Shown in pieces: positions 35,415 through 45,225 of a DNA stretch of 63,103 nucleotides. The notes under the pieces were generated by a model. The model saw only the letters and a list, made by a program, of their open reading frames with translations. It made no database searches and was not told where the DNA came from. Position 1 is the stretch's first letter. Each line of letters opens with the position of its first letter. Source of the stretch: Treponemataceae bacterium (lineage in GTDB: Bacteria; Spirochaetota; Spirochaetia; Treponematales; Rectinemataceae); assembly GCA_963677895.2 (NCBI GenBank), contig CAXXGJ010000022.1, forward strand, positions 1 through 63,103, given 5' to 3'. The translations under genes were made by a program, and so were the position numbers.

Positions 35415-36227
35415 TTACTCGCTTAAATACAGCGCCGCGCCGAGCGCGGTCGCGTACTGGGCGAGTTCGGGGACGATGAAGCGTATGCCATAGATGGGGT
35501 AGAGCTTTTCCAGCACGGTGACCGCCGCCGGAATCTGCATCGTGTTGCCCACGACGACAATCGTCGAGTCGCGCTCGGCGCGTGAAGCGAAGAGCGCCAG
35601 CATGCCCACGGTCTGGAACACCATATTGACAATGCCCGCCGCGAAATCCTCGACGCTTGGTCGATCGGCCATCTTGCCGAAATTGGACGCGGTGGCTTCG
35701 CGCGGCAGCGTACCCACTTCTTTGGAAGAAATATCGCCGACGGTCAGATCGACGCCCTTCACGTCGCCCCGCGAAGCCGCGAGGGCAAGAGTGTCGAAAT
35801 CCGTGATCCCGGCCAGGGCCTTGCCGAGCCCCAGGATCGTGCCTCCACCGATGCCCGAGCCGCCCACATGGCGCGCCTGCCTGCCTTCGGCGTGGACGAT
35901 GGCCGTTCCCGTCCCCACGGAGACGACCAGGGCCCGCTCGGCGCCGGAAAGCTCCAATCCGCCAAGGCCAACGGCCTGGAATTCCTCCACGTGCTCGACC
36001 TTTATGCCGAGAACGTCCTCCCCGATGGCGCTGGAGCCGACGCCGGTCACCGCGAGCCTCGTGATGTCGCCCATCTTCTTTCCGGCCACGGAAAGAAATT
36101 TCCCGATGGCCCCCGCGGCCGAAGTGACGGGATCGCTCGCCTTGACCGTGGCGCAGATTCTTTCCTTATTGGGTCCGAGGCCGACGATCTTGGTCGTCGT
36201 GCCGCCGATATCTATGCCGACTATCAT
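35415..36227 (-). CDS. Type II (Fumble-like) pantothenate kinase
   Basis: GIDIGGTTTK, AVTGVG, EEFQA, SVGTGT, VGGSGIGGGTILGL, DLTVGDI and ASNFGK. Confidence 0.85.
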   Translation of the reverse strand: MIVGIDIGGTTTKIVGLGPNKERICATVKASDPVTSAAGAIGKFLSVAGKKMGDITRLAVTGVGSSAIGEDVLGIKVEHVEEFQAVGLGGLELSGAERALVVSVGTGTAIVHAEGRQARHVGGSGIGGGTILGLGKALAGITDFDTLALAASRGDVKGVDLTVGDISSKEVGTLPREATASNFGKMADRPSVEDFAAGIVNMVFQTVGMLALFASRAERDSTIVVVGNTMQIPAAVTVLEKLYPIYGIRFIVPELAQYATALGAALYLSE

Positions 36228-37090
36228 TATTTCCTCGCTTCTTGGTGTCTGCCCGCGCCGTAAGACGACAGAAAAGCGTCCAACGTCGGCCGCAGCGACG
36301 GATCATTCGCGGCGTTGAACAGGATCGCTTCCAGATAGCCGGCCGGATCGCCCGTGTCGAGTCTCGTTCCGGCGACGCGCGTGAAGGCCATCTTGCCCGC
36401 CTCGATCATGCGGTCCAAGGCGTACGTATGATAATACTCGCCCTTGCCATGTTTCGCCCAACCTTCCTCGAGCCTGTCGAAAAATTCCGGAGTATACAGA
36501 TATCGGCCGATGGACACTTCGTGGCTGGGTTCGCTGCCGCGAGCCGGCTTTTCCACGAAGCCTTTCACGCCGACGCCGTCTTTTTCCGGATCGACGATAC
36601 CGTAGCGGGACACGTCGCCGGGTTCGAATATCGTGGCCAGGATGCACTTGCCCGTTTTATGGTACACGTCGATGAGCTGGCGCGCGAGGGGGATATCGCC
36701 CAGGACCAGATCGTCAGGATAAGCCACGACGCAGGGTTCGCCGCCGATGAGGTTTTTCACCTGCAGCAGCGCGTGTCCGGTGCCCATCATCTCCGTCTGG
36801 CGCACGAAGGAAATGCGCGCCGGCGGCGGGCTTATCAAGGCAAGCTTGTCGGCTTTACCTTCCCTCGCAAAAAGGCCTTCCAGCTCTATCTCGCGGTCGA
36901 AATAGTCCTCGAGGGCTTTCTTCCTCCGCGATGAGATGATGATGATATCCTTGATGCCCGAGGCGATGAACTCATCGACGATATAGGCGATGCTCGGCTT
37001 CACGCCGACGGGCAGGAGTTCCTTGGGAACGGTCTTGGTGACGGGCAGAAAACGCGTGCCATAACCGGCTGCGACGATGATCCCTTTCAT
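36227..37090 (-). CDS. galU: UTP--glucose-1-phosphate uridylyltransferase
   Basis: AAGYGTRFLPVTKTVPKELLP, VRQTEMMGTGHA, FVEKP and IGRY. Confidence 0.88.
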   Translation of the reverse strand: MKGIIVAAGYGTRFLPVTKTVPKELLPVGVKPSIAYIVDEFIASGIKDIIIISSRRKKALEDYFDREIELEGLFAREGKADKLALISPPPARISFVRQTEMMGTGHALLQVKNLIGGEPCVVAYPDDLVLGDIPLARQLIDVYHKTGKCILATIFEPGDVSRYGIVDPEKDGVGVKGFVEKPARGSEPSHEVSIGRYLYTPEFFDRLEEGWAKHGKGEYYHTYALDRMIEAGKMAFTRVAGTRLDTGDPAGYLEAILFNAANDPSLRPTLDAFLSSYGAGRHQEARK

Positions 37091-37097
37091 GGCGTCG

Positions 37098-37126
37098 ATT
37101 CTAGCCCCCCGGCAGCTATTAGGCAA
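37098..37126 (-). promoter_or_regulatory. sigma70 promoter TTGCCT-N17-TAGAAT for galU
   Basis: -10 ends 7 nt before ATG 37090. No SD sequence is present. Confidence 0.6.
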
Positions 37127-37199
37127 GGCTGAGCGAAGGACAATGAAGCGTGGCGGAGATAGCGTCCATATTGATCGGCGAATCCGAGCGCTGCCGATA

Positions 37200-37244
37200 A
37201 ACAACAGGATATCCCCGCGAAATACGCGGAGATATCCTGTTGTT
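37200..37244 (-). terminator. Long hairpin downstream of the flavoprotein gene
   Basis: AACAACAGGATATC-C-CCGCG / CGCGG-A-GATATCCTGTTGTT, 19 paired bases with one mismatch. Confidence 0.7.
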
Positions 37245-39276: not shown

Positions 39277-41016
39277 TCAGCCTACGCACCACCCGCCCTT
39301 CCCTTCGTTCTTCGCCTTGTAGAGCCCGCGATCGGCCATTTGCAGGGTCGCCGTCAGCTCCTCGAAGCTGGGCTCGCCGCCGCAGCAGAATGCCACCCCG
39401 GCCGAAACGGTGTATCCGACGACTCTCGGCGCTCCATTTACCGCCGACGCGTCCTGGACCGCGGCGACGCCGGATTGCCTGCAATCCGAAACGAGGTGAT
39501 CGGCGATCGTGTTGGCTACCTCGAGAGGACAACCGCGCAGGACGAGGAGAAACTCGTCGCCTCCGGTTCTCACCACGCAATCGTCGGCGCGGATGTTCCT
39601 CTGGGCGACCCTTACCAGATCGACGAGAATGGCGTCGCCCGTCGCGTGGCCGAAGCTGTCGTTGATGGATTTGAAGTTGTCGATATCGAAGGCCAATACG
39701 GAAAAGGGCTTCTTGAGATCGTCAGCGAGAATCGGCAGTATTTTCCGGTTGTAGCATCCCGTGAGTTCGTCGTGGAGCGCTTCTTCACGGAACGAGGCCG
39801 CCCGTCGCCGCTCCACGATGAGCGCTCTGTAATGACCCAAGGCATCGTAAACCACGAAGCCGCAGGAAGCCAATGCCAGCACGATAAAACCGTAATGGGA
39901 GACCATGATGGCCCCGGGATCGTCCACCAGGACGAGAAGGATGATGTCGCGCGTCGCGCTGAGGAAGGCCACGACGACGCCGAAGACGATGATCCGCAGG
40001 GAACCCGCCTTCCGGGCCTGGCCGGCCACGATCACCAAAAGATAGGTCTGCAGCGGCAGAAAAGCGAGATAGGTATAGCCGTAGAGGCGTTTTATGGCGA
40101 CGATGTCGCCCGGGTAGACGAGAACTAGGGCGAAGCAGGCCAGCTGCATGGCGGTGAAGATGATGGCGAAAATATCCGGTTTTCTGTCGAGAAGCTTCAG
40201 GTAGGCTATCACGAAAAGCGCGGCGCTCAGGTGGCGCAGCGATACGACGATTTTCTTGAAAGCCACGAGCGAGATCGGGAGACGCTCCAGATAGACGAAA
40301 TCGGCGAGGAAAACGGCGACGGCGATACCGGCGATGCCCAGAAGGATGTTGGATAGCCTGCTCAGGTCGTTGAAGATCCCCATGCTCAGGACGATGATCG
40401 AAAACGCCAGGATCGCGCCCATCGAGAGCCAGATCGCGCCGTTGGAAAAGAGCATTAAGAGAAAGAGCCGCGGTCCGTGGCGGTTCGCGTCGATCAGATA
40501 CGGCAATACGGTGATTCCCGCCTCATAGGTGCCCGCTATGCGGGCGTCGATGGTGTTTTCGATCGAAAGCAGGCCGGCGGGAACGGGAAAGACATGCACC
40601 GCGTTCCATATGCTGGATCGCCCATCCTTTGGATCGCCGCGTACGCCTATAGGCAGGCCGTTGAGGGTCACCGCCAGCGAGCTTCCCGCCATCTGCGGAA
40701 ACACGATGGCCCAGTTTTCGCCGCCCGCGATCGCGCCAGGAACGCGAAGCTTCATATGGAATACATAGCCGCCGGACTGGAAGGAGGCATCGCCTGTGCA
40801 GGAAATGAGGATCGGCAGCGCTTTTGTCCCGAGAGAGACTCCATCCCTCTCGATCGCCGCCGAGGGTTCCGCAAGCAGCGCGTCGCGTGGCGCCTTGTAG
40901 GCGGACAGGAAGGCCTGGAGCGCGAAGACTACTAAAAACACCGCGGCGATGTACGCCGCGCTTCTCATGTTCGCTCGAGGGGAAGGTTTGGGCATGCCCG
41001 CCTCGTTTTCCTTCAT
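39277..41016 (-). CDS. Membrane-bound diguanylate cyclase with extracytoplasmic beta-rich domain and about 7 TM segments
   Basis: DELTGCYNR, DIDNFKSIND and RADD..RTGGDEF. Confidence 0.9.
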   Translation of the reverse strand: MKENEAGMPKPSPRANMRSAAYIAAVFLVVFALQAFLSAYKAPRDALLAEPSAAIERDGVSLGTKALPILISCTGDASFQSGGYVFHMKLRVPGAIAGGENWAIVFPQMAGSSLAVTLNGLPIGVRGDPKDGRSSIWNAVHVFPVPAGLLSIENTIDARIAGTYEAGITVLPYLIDANRHGPRLFLLMLFSNGAIWLSMGAILAFSIIVLSMGIFNDLSRLSNILLGIAGIAVAVFLADFVYLERLPISLVAFKKIVVSLRHLSAALFVIAYLKLLDRKPDIFAIIFTAMQLACFALVLVYPGDIVAIKRLYGYTYLAFLPLQTYLLVIVAGQARKAGSLRIIVFGVVVAFLSATRDIILLVLVDDPGAIMVSHYGFIVLALASCGFVVYDALGHYRALIVERRRAASFREEALHDELTGCYNRKILPILADDLKKPFSVLAFDIDNFKSINDSFGHATGDAILVDLVRVAQRNIRADDCVVRTGGDEFLLVLRGCPLEVANTIADHLVSDCRQSGVAAVQDASAVNGAPRVVGYTVSAGVAFCCGGEPSFEELTATLQMADRGLYKAKNEGKGGWCVG

Positions 41017-43019
41017 CGGAAAAGCGATCCCTCGGGAAAATGCCTCGCGGCCAAGCCCTTCAGGCCCAGCTTATCGAGGGTTTCCGCCGTCGGCACTCCC
41101 GTTTCCCCATCCCAGCCCATAGCCGCCCAGTGCAGGCCGACCTTTTCGGCCAGGGGCAGAGTCTTGCCTTTCAAGGGGCCGTTGGAAAGCGGAGGCGCGC
41201 CGCGCATGCGTTCGGTGACGAAACAGTCGCGCGGATGGATTCCCTGCTTGATATTGAAGAGCTGGCGCAGGGTCTGCGCTCGCCTGCCCATTTCCATATA
41301 CTCGTCGGGCGACAGTTCCATGCCCGTCGCCGCGTTGAAAAAGGCGAAAAGATCCCAGTGCTGTACGCCCGTGATCATGGCGAAGAGACAGCCTCCCGCC
41401 ATGTCGGCCACTTGTTTGTAGAGCGTGCCGGCCACTCCCTTCATCGCTTCTTCCTCGGTGGCGCCGTACTCGCGCGACTTCAGGTATACGAGCGGCACCT
41501 TCGGCGCCCAGGACACCCTCGTCCAGAGCCGCATAACGTTGTAATAGACGCCGGAGGCGATCGTGTGGCGTCCCGGCGTTGGGTCGGCCGAGTAGGACAC
41601 TCCCATCTGCGGATCGGCCCGCGAATCGTGCATGCCGGGCTCCTGTCCTCCCGCCTGCGCCGCGAAAGATTCAGAGGAACGCCCCAGTTTCTTCGCTGCC
41701 GCGGCGGCGCCGTCGGCGAAGAGCTCGCCTATGCCCTGGCGCCTCGCCATGAGCTCGAGGAACTCCACGATGGCTTCGCTGCCGCCCCACTTCAGGTCAA
41801 TGCCGCCCAACGCGGCTTCGCTCAGGATTCCGCGTTCCCGGCACTCGATGGCGAAGGCCACGGTCGATCCCGCGGAAATTGTGTCGAGGCCGCTCCTGTT
41901 GCATATGTCGTTGCACCTGAAGATGGACGCATGGTCGTCGTTGAGCAGGAGCGGGCCGAAAGCGGCGTGCGTCTCGTACTCCGGTTTGTGCATATGGCCG
42001 CCGCCGGCGATGATGCCGCTCACGTCGCAGATGCCGCCGCAGCCGATAACGCAGGAATAGCAATGGTATTTCTTCGTTTCGAGGTCCGTGACCTTCTGGG
42101 CGTTGAGCTTTTCGTATTGCGCCTTCGGGAACTCGGCCGGGCCGTCCTTCCAGTTACCCACCGGCGTATCGCCGTTCACCACGCCCCCGGTATTGTTGTA
42201 GATCGTGCCCCAGCGCTTGAAAAACGCCGCGCTCAGGATGCCGTCCATGCGGAAGACGAGGGGCAGTCCCATCATTTTTCCCACGAAGGCCAGGTGTTTG
42301 CCCTTCACGAAGGCCGGGATGTTGGTATTCTTCACCGATTCGGTGAATCGCTTGGAGAGTTCCATCACCTTCTGCGGATTGGCGCAGGGTATTTTGGCGC
42401 TTCCGGATAGAACGATGGCCTTGAGGCGCTTCGAACCCATGACGGCGCCCACACCCGAGCGCGCGGCGTAGCGGCCGCCGTCGTTGGAGATACCGGAGAT
42501 GAGCGACAGGTTCTCGGCGGCGTAGCCTATGGCGGCCATCGCCGGTTTTTTGGCGCCTTTCCACGAGGCGAAAATCGCTTCCTCGGTTTCGACGGCGTCC
42601 TTGCCCCAGAGATCCCCGGCCGGTTCCAGCCGGGGGCCTTCGTCATCGCAGAAAAAAACGACGGGTTGGGCCGAGATTCCCTTGAAGAAGATGCCGTCGT
42701 AGCCGCAGCGTTTTATCGCCGGGGACAGGGTGCCGCCGCAGTTGGCGTCTCCCCAGCCGCCGGTGAGGGGCGACTTGCAGGCCACCATCCAGCGGCCGGT
42801 CATCACCGACCCGGTCCCGGTCAGCGCCCCCGACATGAAGGCGAGCAGGTTTTCGGGACCGAGCGGGTCAGCGCCGGCGGGAATTTCGTCGATGAGAATT
42901 CGCGCCGCGAGGCCGATCCCGCCGGCGCACTCGCGGTACATTTCTTCTGGCGGTGTCCGCGTCTCGAAGGCGCCGCTCCCCAGATCGACGAAGAGCAGCT
43001 TGCCCATGCAGCCTTTCAT
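41013..43019 (-). CDS. Aldehyde:ferredoxin oxidoreductase family (W/Mo-pterin, 4Fe-4S)
   Basis: DPLGPEN, KSPLTGG, GAVMGSKRLKAI, CYSCVIGC, PEYET and GLDTIS. Confidence 0.95.
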   Translation of the reverse strand: MKGCMGKLLFVDLGSGAFETRTPPEEMYRECAGGIGLAARILIDEIPAGADPLGPENLLAFMSGALTGTGSVMTGRWMVACKSPLTGGWGDANCGGTLSPAIKRCGYDGIFFKGISAQPVVFFCDDEGPRLEPAGDLWGKDAVETEEAIFASWKGAKKPAMAAIGYAAENLSLISGISNDGGRYAARSGVGAVMGSKRLKAIVLSGSAKIPCANPQKVMELSKRFTESVKNTNIPAFVKGKHLAFVGKMMGLPLVFRMDGILSAAFFKRWGTIYNNTGGVVNGDTPVGNWKDGPAEFPKAQYEKLNAQKVTDLETKKYHCYSCVIGCGGICDVSGIIAGGGHMHKPEYETHAAFGPLLLNDDHASIFRCNDICNRSGLDTISAGSTVAFAIECRERGILSEAALGGIDLKWGGSEAIVEFLELMARRQGIGELFADGAAAAAKKLGRSSESFAAQAGGQEPGMHDSRADPQMGVSYSADPTPGRHTIASGVYYNVMRLWTRVSWAPKVPLVYLKSREYGATEEEAMKGVAGTLYKQVADMAGGCLFAMITGVQHWDLFAFFNAATGMELSPDEYMEMGRRAQTLRQLFNIKQGIHPRDCFVTERMRGAPPLSNGPLKGKTLPLAEKVGLHWAAMGWDGETGVPTAETLDKLGLKGLAARHFPEGSLFR

Positions 43020-43037
43020 GATTGCCTCCAGACGCGG

Positions 43038-43376
43038 TCAGCGCGCAAGGAAATCTTCGCGGGGAGGAGAAAAAACATCGAGGAGCCGCCCCTTGGCGAG
43101 ACATTTGGTTCCATGCCGCGCGCCGCCGGGAACAAGGACGCAATCCCCTTGCTCCAGCCTGTAGGTCGTCGCGCCCACGAAATAATCGAAGCTTCCGTCG
43201 AGACAATAGGAGATCTGCTCATGGGGATGCTGATGCTCGGCTCCCACGACCCCGGTTTCGAAAATCACCTCGACGACCATCGATTTCTCGCCGTAGGCCC
43301 TCACCTTGCGCGACAGAAGACCGGGATCGAGAATTTCGAGCTTGGCCGCTATGTCCGGGAAAAACGTTCCTTCCAT
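43038..43376 (-). CDS. Cupin domain protein
   Basis: HQHPHEQ metal motif, VPGGARHG and C-terminal DVFSPPREDFL. Confidence 0.9.
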   Translation of the reverse strand: MEGTFFPDIAAKLEILDPGLLSRKVRAYGEKSMVVEVIFETGVVGAEHQHPHEQISYCLDGSFDYFVGATTYRLEQGDCVLVPGGARHGTKCLAKGRLLDVFSPPREDFLAR

Positions 43377-43483
43377 GAAAGTCCTCCGCCCAACGCCGGA
43401 TTTCACCGACGTCAAATTCCGTCTTGACTATATCATGAAATTCTGCGACGATACACGAAATCTTCAAGAAAGGAGCCGAAGCA

Positions 43484-43534
43484 GTGTTTGTAAACGTAAC
43501 GTCATCGTACCGAAACGTACGCGCAGCTGCTTAA
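43484..43534 (+). CDS. Putative 16-aa leader peptide MFVNVTSSYRNVRAAA
   Basis: Strong SD AAGGAG (43470-43475) 8 nt before GTG, a TAA stop, an upstream TTGACT -35 (43424-43429), and alternative stems around the ORF. Confidence 0.5.
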   Translation: MFVNVTSSYRNVRAAA

Positions 43535-43687
43535 GGCTCGAGTACAGAAAGAACACCCCCTTTCTCACATCCTTAAGCATCTCCGCGCCACCAGTCAGCT
43601 GCGCTGAAAGCGAAAGCGCAATCGCCATGCCGGCAGGGATTATTCCCTCCGGAACGGTACCGCACCACGTGCGGGAGCATTAAAATC

Positions 43688-45052
43688 ATGGGCACGCAAG
43701 CCGCAAAAAAAAGCATCGACAATCTTCTTCCAGCCCTGCGCCGCAAGGCGGTGGGACTATTCGGCGTGTACAGAGGGCTTCCAAAACCCCTCTACATGCT
43801 GTGCATCGCCACCATCATCAACTCGATGGGCATTTTCGTGTTTCCCTTTCTCACCCTCTATCTCACCGGCAGGTCCGGAATGAGCCAGGGTGAAGCGGGC
43901 AACTTCATGTTTTTCATCTCGATCGTCTACATACCGGGCAACTTCATAGGCGGGAAACTGGCCGACCGATGGGGACGCAAGCGGCTCATGGTCGTCACGC
44001 AGATAATCTCGGCGGCCCTGTACATCCCCTGCGGCTTCCCTATGTTCTCGAAGTATGTTCCCTGGCTCATTCTCCTGAGCGTGTTCTTCGACGGAATCAC
44101 CGATCCCGCCCGGTCGGCGATGATGACGGATCTCACCACGCCGGAGAACAGGCGCACCGCCTTCTCGCTCCAGTACCTCGTCCACAATCTCGGCTTCGCG
44201 GTGGGATCGCTCATCGCTGGCTTCCTCTTCGAGCACGCATCGTCATGGCTCTTCTGGGGAAACGCGCTGGCCGTCTTCGCCGCCACCGCCATCGTGGGCG
44301 CCAAGGTGGGCGAAACGAAGCCTACCCAGCAGCAGATCGACGCGACCATCGGCACGGGAAGCACAGAGGAGGCCCACAAGGGCTCGCTGGTCCAAGCCCT
44401 GATGTCGCGGCCCTTCCTCATCGTTTTCACGATGATCGTGACCTGGTACGGCTTCGTCTACAACCAGCACCGCTTCGCCCTGCCTCTCCAGACGAAAGCG
44501 CTGTTCGGCGAATCAGGAGCGGCCATCTTCGGAACCTTCATGACGCTGAACGCCGTCCTCGTCATCTTCCTCTCGACGCCCGTGATGGCCCTTTCGAAAA
44601 AATGGAAGCCCATCAATTCGGTGGCGCTGGCCGGAGTCTTCTACGCGGTGGGATTCGGCATGATAGGACTGTCTCGCAATATCTGGCTTCTTTACCTGTC
44701 CACGATCCTGTGGACGCTGGGAGAAATCGTGAACGCCACGAACGAAGGCGCCTATGTGGCGAACCACACGCCCATCTCGCACCGTGGAAGATTCCAGGCG
44801 GTGCTGCCCTTCATCGGGGGAATAGGCTGGACCATAAGCCCTCCCGTCATCGGCAGGCTCATAGACGCCACCAGCCTCGACGCCGCCTGGCCTCTGGTGG
44901 GCGCCATAGCCGCCGTCGCCGCGGGCCTGCTCTGGCTCCTGGGCAAGATCGAGGATCGAACGCTGGCCAGGCGGCCAAAAATCGCCCCGGAAAGCGCTCC
45001 AGGAATCGACCAGAAAGGCGCCGGGGAGGCTTCTGTGGAAATTCGGGATTAA
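43688..45052 (+). CDS. MFS transporter
   Basis: Motif A GKLADRWGRK, about 12 TM segments and N-terminal YRGLPKPLY. Confidence 0.93.
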   Translation: MGTQAAKKSIDNLLPALRRKAVGLFGVYRGLPKPLYMLCIATIINSMGIFVFPFLTLYLTGRSGMSQGEAGNFMFFISIVYIPGNFIGGKLADRWGRKRLMVVTQIISAALYIPCGFPMFSKYVPWLILLSVFFDGITDPARSAMMTDLTTPENRRTAFSLQYLVHNLGFAVGSLIAGFLFEHASSWLFWGNALAVFAATAIVGAKVGETKPTQQQIDATIGTGSTEEAHKGSLVQALMSRPFLIVFTMIVTWYGFVYNQHRFALPLQTKALFGESGAAIFGTFMTLNAVLVIFLSTPVMALSKKWKPINSVALAGVFYAVGFGMIGLSRNIWLLYLSTILWTLGEIVNATNEGAYVANHTPISHRGRFQAVLPFIGGIGWTISPPVIGRLIDATSLDAAWPLVGAIAAVAAGLLWLLGKIEDRTLARRPKIAPESAPGIDQKGAGEASVEIRD

Positions 45053-45153
45053 TGGAGGTATACTGTAGTGGGTGGCGGAGCGGTTTACCGGTCTTCCACC
45101 CAGCCAAGCCACAGGGAAACAAGACCGAATGGACATAAAAAGAGAGCGTTCGG

Positions 45154-45225
45154 TGGGCGATATTGGGATTGAACCAATGACTTCTACCGTGTGAAGGTAG
45201 CACTCTCCCGCTGAGTTAATCGCCC
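45154..45225 (-). tRNA. tRNA-Val(CAC)
   Basis: GGGCGATTAACTCAGCGGGAGAGTGCTACCTTCACACGGTAGAAGTCATTGGTTCAATCCCAATATCGCCCA folds as a cloverleaf with anticodon CAC. It is followed by CCG, not CCA. Confidence 0.96.

Follow-up and report, generated by a model that had tools for sequence, protein, structure and literature searches.

We analysed a 63,103-nucleotide (nt) stretch of DNA from a Treponemataceae bacterium of the family Rectinemataceae (contig CAXXGJ010000022.1; hereafter the window), in which a gene for a major facilitator superfamily (MFS) transporter starts at 43688 and a divergent cupin gene occupies 43038-43376 on the minus strand. Between the two lies a leader, spanning 264 nt from the -35 box of its putative promoter to the MFS start, that contains a short upstream open reading frame (uORF) whose stop codon falls within two mutually exclusive predicted RNA helices. 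A preliminary description, made from the letters of the window alone, had read this leader as a ribosome-coupled attenuator or a dual-function small RNA. The promoter, the Shine-Dalgarno sequence AAGGAG (43470-75), the frame from GTG 43484 to TAA 43534 and all stem arms that it listed were each found where it had placed them. The element is real, conserved and apparently undescribed, and its features are as follows.

43424-43452, plus strand: putative sigma70-type promoter, called from sequence and conservation (-35 TTGACT 43424-29, TG 43444-45, -10 GACGAT 43447-52)

43470-43485, plus strand: the leader's ribosome-binding site (AAGGAG, 43470-75) together with segment 1 (43473-77 and 43479-85), which forms the 5' arm of helix 1:2

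43484-43534, plus strand: uORF of 16 codons with a GTG start and a TAA stop, reading (M)FVNVTSSYRNVRAAA, open in all leaders

43520-43539, plus strand: segment 2, the switching strand (last four codons, stop and GGCTC), whose partner is segment 1 or segment 3

43546-43565, plus strand: hairpin AGAAAG/CTTTCT, predicted for both folds, whose loop contains CACCCC (43554-59)

43571-43588, plus strand: segment 3, made up of CGCGC and a stretch complementary to the stop region; rich in C, a candidate Rho-loading site, and may pair with the MFS start region

43596-43620, plus strand: distal pairing partner (43596-604) of segment 2; a local hairpin (43600-05/43615-20) overlaps it

43624-43658, plus strand: spacer hairpin of variable sequence, from predicted folds

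43660-43674, plus strand: last hairpin, CCGCAC/GTGCGG, which ends 13 nt 5' of the MFS ATG and takes in the first G of the MFS GGAG

43688-45052, plus strand: MFS transporter of 454 amino acids (Pfam MFS_1, E 3e-40), with LmrP as its nearest solved relative

The -35 and -10 boxes of the promoter are separated by a 17-nt spacer, and transcripts would start near 43459. TTGAC was kept in all 23 leaders that we compared, and A2 and T6 of the -10 box, at 17-nt spacing, in 19 of them. A consensus promoter scan of the window did not list the 43424-43452 promoter, because its -10 box fits only three of the six consensus positions. In the leaderless orthologues of genus g9 (L017 and L022), the same promoter form stands 20 nt 5' of the MFS ATG and the entire leader is missing. 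The promoter call is therefore supported, and the leader can be seen as a removable insert between promoter and gene.

Examination of the regions upstream of 71 homologous genes gave 23 leaders, representing 10 of the 21 genera of Rectinemataceae. It was found at 22 of the 31 closest orthologues (missing from nine), at one of 40 more distant homologues (missing from 39), and at all eight metagenome loci of close relatives. A search with the leader DNA gave matches in 18 of 69 family genomes, one of them spurious, and an RNA model built from 18 leaders gave matches in 21 of the 69. Run with filters off, the RNA model retrieved the divergent leader L074, on which it had not been trained (19 bits, E 0.03); two weak matches (L133 and L134) were ordinary gene starts. 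Model R2 found no leader in 114 genomes of the order's other families or in 150 of the phylum, in a search that scored only the best candidates and that divergent leaders can escape. When 401 phylum genomes were searched with a pattern, 15 had matches, no excess over a reversed-pattern control, and only the match in this window looked genuine. The pattern was also scanned across a species-genome collection, where 15 of 42 matches were the leader before an MFS gene, 23 lacked an open frame with a true stop, and four were open but unrelated; none of the 42 placed the leader before any other gene. No second copy was detected in the same genome by blastn, nhmmer or the RNA models, only one of 43 candidates from a regular-expression search of that genome had both downstream motifs, and a pairing-energy screen returned 24 candidates, with no other convincing by eye.

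On a quick tree of 50 transporter proteins, built without a clade test, leaders occurred on three separated branches. Two leaderless g9 genomes were nested in the main leader-bearing clade, and L178, from which the uORF part is missing, was sister to the complete L179. We infer from these comparisons that the leader has probably been lost repeatedly. The L072/L178 locus (G015:C217, before 11047) is a natural deletion that keeps the promoter and the downstream hairpins and lacks the uORF and switch segments; its sister genome G017 is complete. A second leader-MFS copy, nearly identical to that of genus g11, is present in G050 (G050:C7:108838-110392), and because this genome is 7% contaminated the copy may be a binning error or a transfer.

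The uORF was open in all 23 leaders and nearly fixed in length, with 16 codons in 20 leaders, 15 in two and 14 in one. Stop codons were all at the same place and comprised TAA (4), TAG (9) and TGA (10). The AAGGAG was invariant in the leader alignments; L007 and L049 have lost the GTG and have an in-frame ATG instead, and a 6-nt deletion in L021 is in frame, so that the uORF stays open. In a neutral simulation of codons 2-12, which used crude branch lengths derived from 33 nt, stops were expected in ~7 of 17 distinct blocks, and zero stops were obtained in 0.6% of runs (P ~0.006). Codon comparison of the leaders detected no amino-acid constraint on the peptide. Differences at codon positions 1, 2 and 3 numbered 764, 956 and 897 over 1496 codon pairs, and the 301 single-base codon differences comprised 87 synonymous and 214 non-synonymous ones. 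As the three positions are about equally variable, we conclude that the peptide is not the sensor. Conservation of the peptide, which the preliminary description had proposed as a check, therefore failed, and with an unconserved peptide the leader is not an arrest-peptide system. Selection appears to act on the translation of a frame with this length and not on the product.

Many leader peptides end in R-x-A-A, in which the terminal alanine codons are always GCT GCT or, in some members, ACT GCT; that is, the conservation is at the nucleotide level. This ending is missing from the three most divergent leaders (L018, L028 and L074). The peptides have a mixed S, N, V, T and I composition with no conserved codon run of the amino-acid attenuator kind, and the +X+ macrolide motif, as in MefAL, is not conserved in them. 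Several candidate signals were rejected. Alanine sensing was ruled out because conservation of the alanine codons is at the nucleotide level and L018, L028 and L074 do not have the motif. Rare-codon sensing was set aside: codon adaptation of the uORF is low (3rd percentile of 785 N-termini), but not in L028 or L074, with one genome's table applied to all. The peptide ends in AAA, and origin as a transfer-messenger RNA (tmRNA) fragment was ruled out, as the genome's tmRNA lies on contig C38 and none lies within the window. The tmRNA gene (G000:C38:19329-19690) scored 163 bits with the Rfam model; ARAGORN found none in the genome.

Helices 1:2 and 2:3 were evaluated in 20 representative leaders (the 23 minus the near-identical L003, L011 and L049). 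Because the four segments were defined after looking at the sequences, the statistics are not blind. In this window, the z-score was -2.25 for the 1:2 fold (43459-545), where 6 of 200 shuffles did as well, and -3.88 for the 2:3 fold (43505-610), where 0 of 200 did. Duplex 1:2 was better than shuffles (<=5/100 as good) in 17 of the 20 leaders, as was duplex 2:3, and the control pairings 1:3, 2:4 and 1:4 were better than shuffles in none. Helix 2:3 also co-varied: a 19-sequence alignment contained 14 two-sided changes versus 6.6 in shuffles, none of 500 shuffles was as high, and slid controls reached at most four. The changes were mostly at bases 2 and 3 of the stop codon, the third base forming A-U in 10 sequences and G-C in 8. 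Helix 1:2 was 94% paired in 18 sequences. The frame and the two switch helices of the preliminary description are conserved in relatives. Of the two downstream pairings that it gave for the end of the uORF, 43528-36 with 43571-79 holds as the co-varying helix 2:3, and the distal one, 43521-29 with 43596-604, is a perfect 9-base-pair (bp) helix only in this genus and partial elsewhere. A TTGCG..CGCAA hairpin recurs in alignment A1.

The position of a modelled ribosome determined which helix was predicted. Without a ribosome, helix 1:2 dominated in footprint folding and 2:3 averaged 4 bp across the 20 leaders; with a ribosome on codons 1-5 the mean for 2:3 was 11-12 bp, and with one at the last codon it was 0. 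In growing transcripts of this window, at the length ending at 43595, the probability (P) of 2:3 was 1.00 for an early stall, versus 0.07 with no ribosome and 0.00 with a ribosome at the last codon. Opening segment 3 was more than 2 kcal/mol costlier in the early-stall state in 16 of 20 leaders when compared with no ribosome, and in 15 of 20 when compared with a ribosome at the stop.

Downstream of the switch, CACCC is found 15-20 nt 3' of the stop in all 20 representative leaders. The AGAAAG/CTTTCT hairpin that presents it had a P of 0.96-0.99 in nearly all modelled states; L019 keeps the motif with no clear hairpin. CCTTTCT (43559-65) had been given two possible partners; it is predicted to pair mostly with AGAAAG 43546-51, at this same P, and not with the leader Shine-Dalgarno sequence. 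With its 3' flank, CACCC forms CACCCCCTTTCT, one base off the 3' tail of the genome's own 16S rRNA. The last hairpin is part of the consensus structure derived from 19 sequences, and two of its six pairs show two-sided changes. It had been described as clipping the MFS Shine-Dalgarno sequence, and it does overlap the first G of GGAG; occlusion of the MFS ribosome-binding site is a more tentative proposal.

No intrinsic terminator (a GC hairpin followed by a U-tract) was found in this window's leader, and none is conserved across the leaders. T runs between the stop and the MFS start contained at most 6 T in 8 nt, a value reached in only 4 of 20. The ~59 nt after the stop had a C/G ratio of 1.7-3.5 and 10-18 YC dinucleotides in all 20 leaders, and the C-minus-G skew of segment 3 was at least at the 90th percentile of 1983 gene-upstream windows in all 20 (99th in this window). 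Segment 3 looks like a candidate Rho-loading site. The genome contains rho, with a match above cut-off, and there is a spirochaete precedent for Rho termination (PMC10319736).

We propose that the leader is an attenuator that likely senses the position of a ribosome rather than a peptide. Without a ribosome, segment 2 is predicted to fold back on the leader's own ribosome-binding site (1:2), leaving segment 3 free and the gene off. A ribosome at the stop would cover segment 2, segment 3 would again be free, and the gene would again be off. A ribosome held at about codons 1-6 would block segment 1 and free segment 2, so that 2:3 forms, segment 3 is hidden and the gene is on. Free segment 3 would allow Rho to stop transcription in the hairpin-rich stretch 5' of the MFS gene, perhaps with pairing of segment 3 to the MFS start region as a backup. 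As a ruler, the length of the frame would fix which ribosome positions count; off, off and on-early logic of this kind would account for conservation of length rather than sequence. The trigger may be general translation stress, such as that caused by ribosome-targeting antibiotics, a suggestion based on the peptide-blind design and on the precedent of toiL and bmrB, and the transporter would be an exporter. Comparison among the leaders shows an open frame of near-fixed length, a free peptide, and helices 1:2 and 2:3. The ribosome-coupled attenuator of the preliminary description is supported by the conserved short frame, the exclusive helices through its stop, the co-variation of 2:3 and the fact that some orthologues have lost the element entirely. 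We regard a ribosome-coupled switch, with either a Rho or a translational output, as highly probable. Rho-dependent attenuation in particular is a balanced call, and it is the explanation that we favour and rank first.

The transporter itself matched the multidrug exporter LmrP, which was the best PDB match by sequence, profile and fold (template-modelling score 0.67, 21% identity). Peptide and lipid transporters nearly equalled LmrP by fold. The structure prediction had a mean predicted local distance difference test (pLDDT) score of 89 when based on an alignment and 44 from the single sequence. All NCBIfam matches were below cut-off, and in a comparison with drug:H+ antiporters (LmrP, MdtH and NorA) the best matches, LmrP and MdtH, were far below curated cut-offs. 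Of three distant plasmid homologues that were examined (33-38% identity), two have biosynthetic or enzyme genes as neighbours, which loosely fits export. L207 lies between ATP-grasp and aminotransferase genes (Priestia), and L208 between a tRNA-ligase-related gene and reductases (Xenorhabdus), neighbourhoods that suggest small-molecule export clusters. A paralogous MFS gene (G000:C38:5272-6507, 35% identity) comes immediately 3' of a different long open frame and lacks a leader of this kind.

Attenuation by uORFs has been studied extensively in Firmicutes, Actinobacteria and Proteobacteria. The ermC leader has a 1:2/3:4 layout, which the arrangement of 1:2 versus 2:3 matches here; the comparison with ermC/cat-type attenuation in the preliminary description holds for this layout and not for the conserved arrest peptide of ermC, cat and cmlA leaders, as there is no amino-acid constraint. 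The logic is shared with the Salmonella corA leader, which has a further ~100 nt conserved stretch past the switch before the gene (PMC5314796). In corA (corL) and mgtA (mgtL), as here, a short uORF overlaps alternative stem-loops, and efficient translation exposes a C-rich Rho site that impaired translation hides, as is also predicted here (PMC5314796, PMC12360218). Those leaders control Mg2+ importers in enterobacteria, whereas this one precedes an MFS gene in spirochaetes, and no sequence similarity emerged from the Rfam search, nor would any be expected. Unlike in corA and mgtA, the switch helix here is centred on the stop codon, which co-varies with the bases complementary to it, and the role of Rho is proposed from a computational signature. 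E. coli toiL-topAI uses uORF-dependent refolding that responds to several antibiotic classes, with stalls at different codons including the start (PMC12121999). The first seven residues of ToiL are conserved and Erm leaders (ermC, ermB) encode arrest peptides, whereas the peptide here is free; occlusion of the downstream ribosome-binding site, of the toiL or ermC type, is tentative here.

A uORF switch precedes an exporter or resistance gene, as here, in bmrB-bmrCD and vmlR (Bacillus subtilis), mefAL and msrDL (streptococcal), and whiB7/wblC (PMC4191407, PMC13689557, bioRxiv 2021.11.29.470318, PMC11550727). In that group an 'anti-anti' helix forms without a ribosome, like 1:2, but the output is through intrinsic terminators, none of which is conserved here. 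The Sinorhizobium meliloti duf1127-1 uORF attenuator is relieved by tetracycline, is probably Rho-dependent, lacks an intrinsic terminator and carries a C-rich element 3' of the uORF (PMC12218461). The same source gives the state without a ribosome as on and a C-rich element inside the uORF, whereas here that state is predicted to be off and the hidden element is downstream. The element resembles corA and mgtA in layout and toiL and bmrB in probable trigger, and it is outside the arrest-peptide, intrinsic-terminator and Rfam families. Its failure to fit a riboswitch consensus, as the preliminary description had noted, was confirmed: no Rfam match reached the gathering score in the window, and none was obtained at E up to 10 in 43300-43800, and a known riboswitch or T-box was rejected on this ground. 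In the literature covered, which mostly excluded subscription papers and did not include the supplementary motif lists of two surveys (PMC8632094, PMC11109978), no case in Rectinemataceae and none matching the element is described.

The same switch could have a translational output, as in ermC and toiL, in which segment 3, when free, would pair with the start codon or ribosome-binding site of the MFS gene and Rho would contribute secondary polarity inside the gene. We rank this second and consider it possible, at a clearly lower probability. Segment 3 paired with the 24 nt 5' of the ATG better than shuffles in 8 of 20 leaders. Holding segment 2 raised the cost of opening the MFS start (-13..+12) by more than 1 kcal/mol in 6 of 20 leaders and lowered it by that amount in none, a wider window became harder to open in 10 of 20, and the mean shift was ~1 kcal/mol. 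A few lineages also contain matches picked by eye: TGTCTGA at both the uORF stop and the MFS start of L018, CCCA opposite ATGGG in several TAG-stop leaders, and, in this window, TTAAGC able to pair with GCATTAA. However, shuffling segment 3 gave a mean z-score of -0.9 for 3:4, with values below -1.64 in 4 of 20 leaders and no better in 16, segment 3 paired equally well with windows inside the MFS gene, and the core 3:4 helix showed no co-variation. Mean accessibility of the MFS start was nearly constant, at 0.47-0.53, whatever the ribosome position, and several leaders have no clear MFS Shine-Dalgarno sequence. Rho attenuation and translational occlusion could also act together. A quite unlikely alternative is that the CACCC loop or the entire leader fold binds a protein or small molecule, such as the transported compound, and that the uORF only tunes or times the switch. 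In its favour, CACCC is kept in 20 of 20 and is predicted to be a single-stranded loop in both folds, which base pairing does not account for; however, there is no Rfam match, the invariant part beyond the ribosome-binding site and switch helices is ~5 nt, little for a ligand pocket, and L019 has the motif with no clear hairpin.

A mechanism of the TnaC/SpeFL type, in which, at the stop, a metabolite acting through the nascent peptide arrests a ribosome, which then shields an adjacent Rho site, would fit the near-fixed 16 codons, the C-rich stretch just 3' of the stop and the R-x-A-A end of many peptides. We consider it very unlikely, as the peptide is unconstrained, all three stops are used, the alanine codons are kept as nucleotides (GCT GCT or ACT GCT) with the motif absent in L018, L028 and L074, and a ribosome at the stop would free segment 3 and leave the co-varying 2:3 helix without a role. 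The dual-function RNA of the preliminary description, in which the released leader acts in trans and its 16S-tail-like CACCCC loop covers the ribosome-binding sites of other mRNAs, is no less improbable. The attenuator RNA rnTrpL reportedly acts in trans, and CACCCCCTTTCT is one base from the genome's 16S 3' end. Beyond the invariant CACCC loop no positive support emerged; a defined, stable small RNA is not expected because no intrinsic terminator is conserved, the element occurs solely before the MFS gene, GGGGTG is present at only 8 of 1983 gene starts, and pairing with the leader's own ribosome-binding site could explain the 16S resemblance. A combined form, in which a peptide-blind ruler attenuator carries a CACCC 16S-tail mimic that shuts its own ribosome-binding site after one round and, once released, those of other mRNAs, is also unlikely; if true, it would unite a translation-stress sensor and a small RNA in a single element. 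Finally, the leader could be decaying or non-regulatory, its hairpins merely stabilising the mRNA. Many orthologues do not have it, and in G015 the uORF part is missing and the downstream hairpins are present, but the frame has stayed open despite heavy divergence, 2:3 has undergone compensatory changes, and leaders are present on three well-separated branches of the transporter tree. We give this explanation almost no credence.

Several observations weigh against the Rho-dependent, ribosome-coupled attenuator that we favour. Many orthologues are leaderless (nine of the 31 closest and 39 of the 40 more distant), and the leaders are kin, so counts overstate their independence. Both switch duplexes were non-significant in L018 and L028, which are among the most divergent leaders, and helix 1:2 showed zero two-sided changes in the alignment, being conserved by invariance. 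In the footprint model, 1:2 re-formed around a ribosome on codons 7-9; this may be sterically unreal, and the sensing window is therefore uncertain. Segment 3 could be C-rich only because it has to pair with G-containing partners, and Rho sites are not reliably predictable (PMC12360218). Three RNA-labelled runs, in which 5-9% of words were present and as contigs only, were uninformative; one 151-nt contig from such a run spans 43455-43605 at a depth of 3 and reveals neither the start nor the level of transcription. With NCBIfam matches below cut-off and other transporters near by fold, drug export by the MFS protein is tentative.

The genes around the leader were also inspected. The conserved TTGACTATATCAT (window 43424-43436) reads TG-A-TATAGT on the minus strand (43435-43427), which may be an extended -10 of the divergent cupin gene, so that two promoters would overlap back to back. 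The cupin gene and an aldehyde:ferredoxin oxidoreductase gene (window 41013-43376, minus strand) are transcribed away from the leader. A similar short divergent gene occurs at the same place in most leader-bearing genomes; L028, L074 and many leaderless genomes have a different divergent gene, by eye like the open reading frame at window 36227-37204. A tRNA-Val(CAC) gene (window 45152-45225, minus strand) is convergent with the MFS gene, 100 nt past its stop.

The surprise in this leader is moderate, because the class of mechanism is already known. The family nevertheless provides a natural experiment, in which the peptide drifts, the frame length, the stop-centred helix and the CACCC loop are kept, and the leader has been partly or entirely lost in relatives. 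If the proposed mechanism is true, this would be a clean case of an attenuator that reads ribosome position alone, and a transporter subfamily found in environmental spirochaetes would stand out as a likely exporter that translation stress induces.

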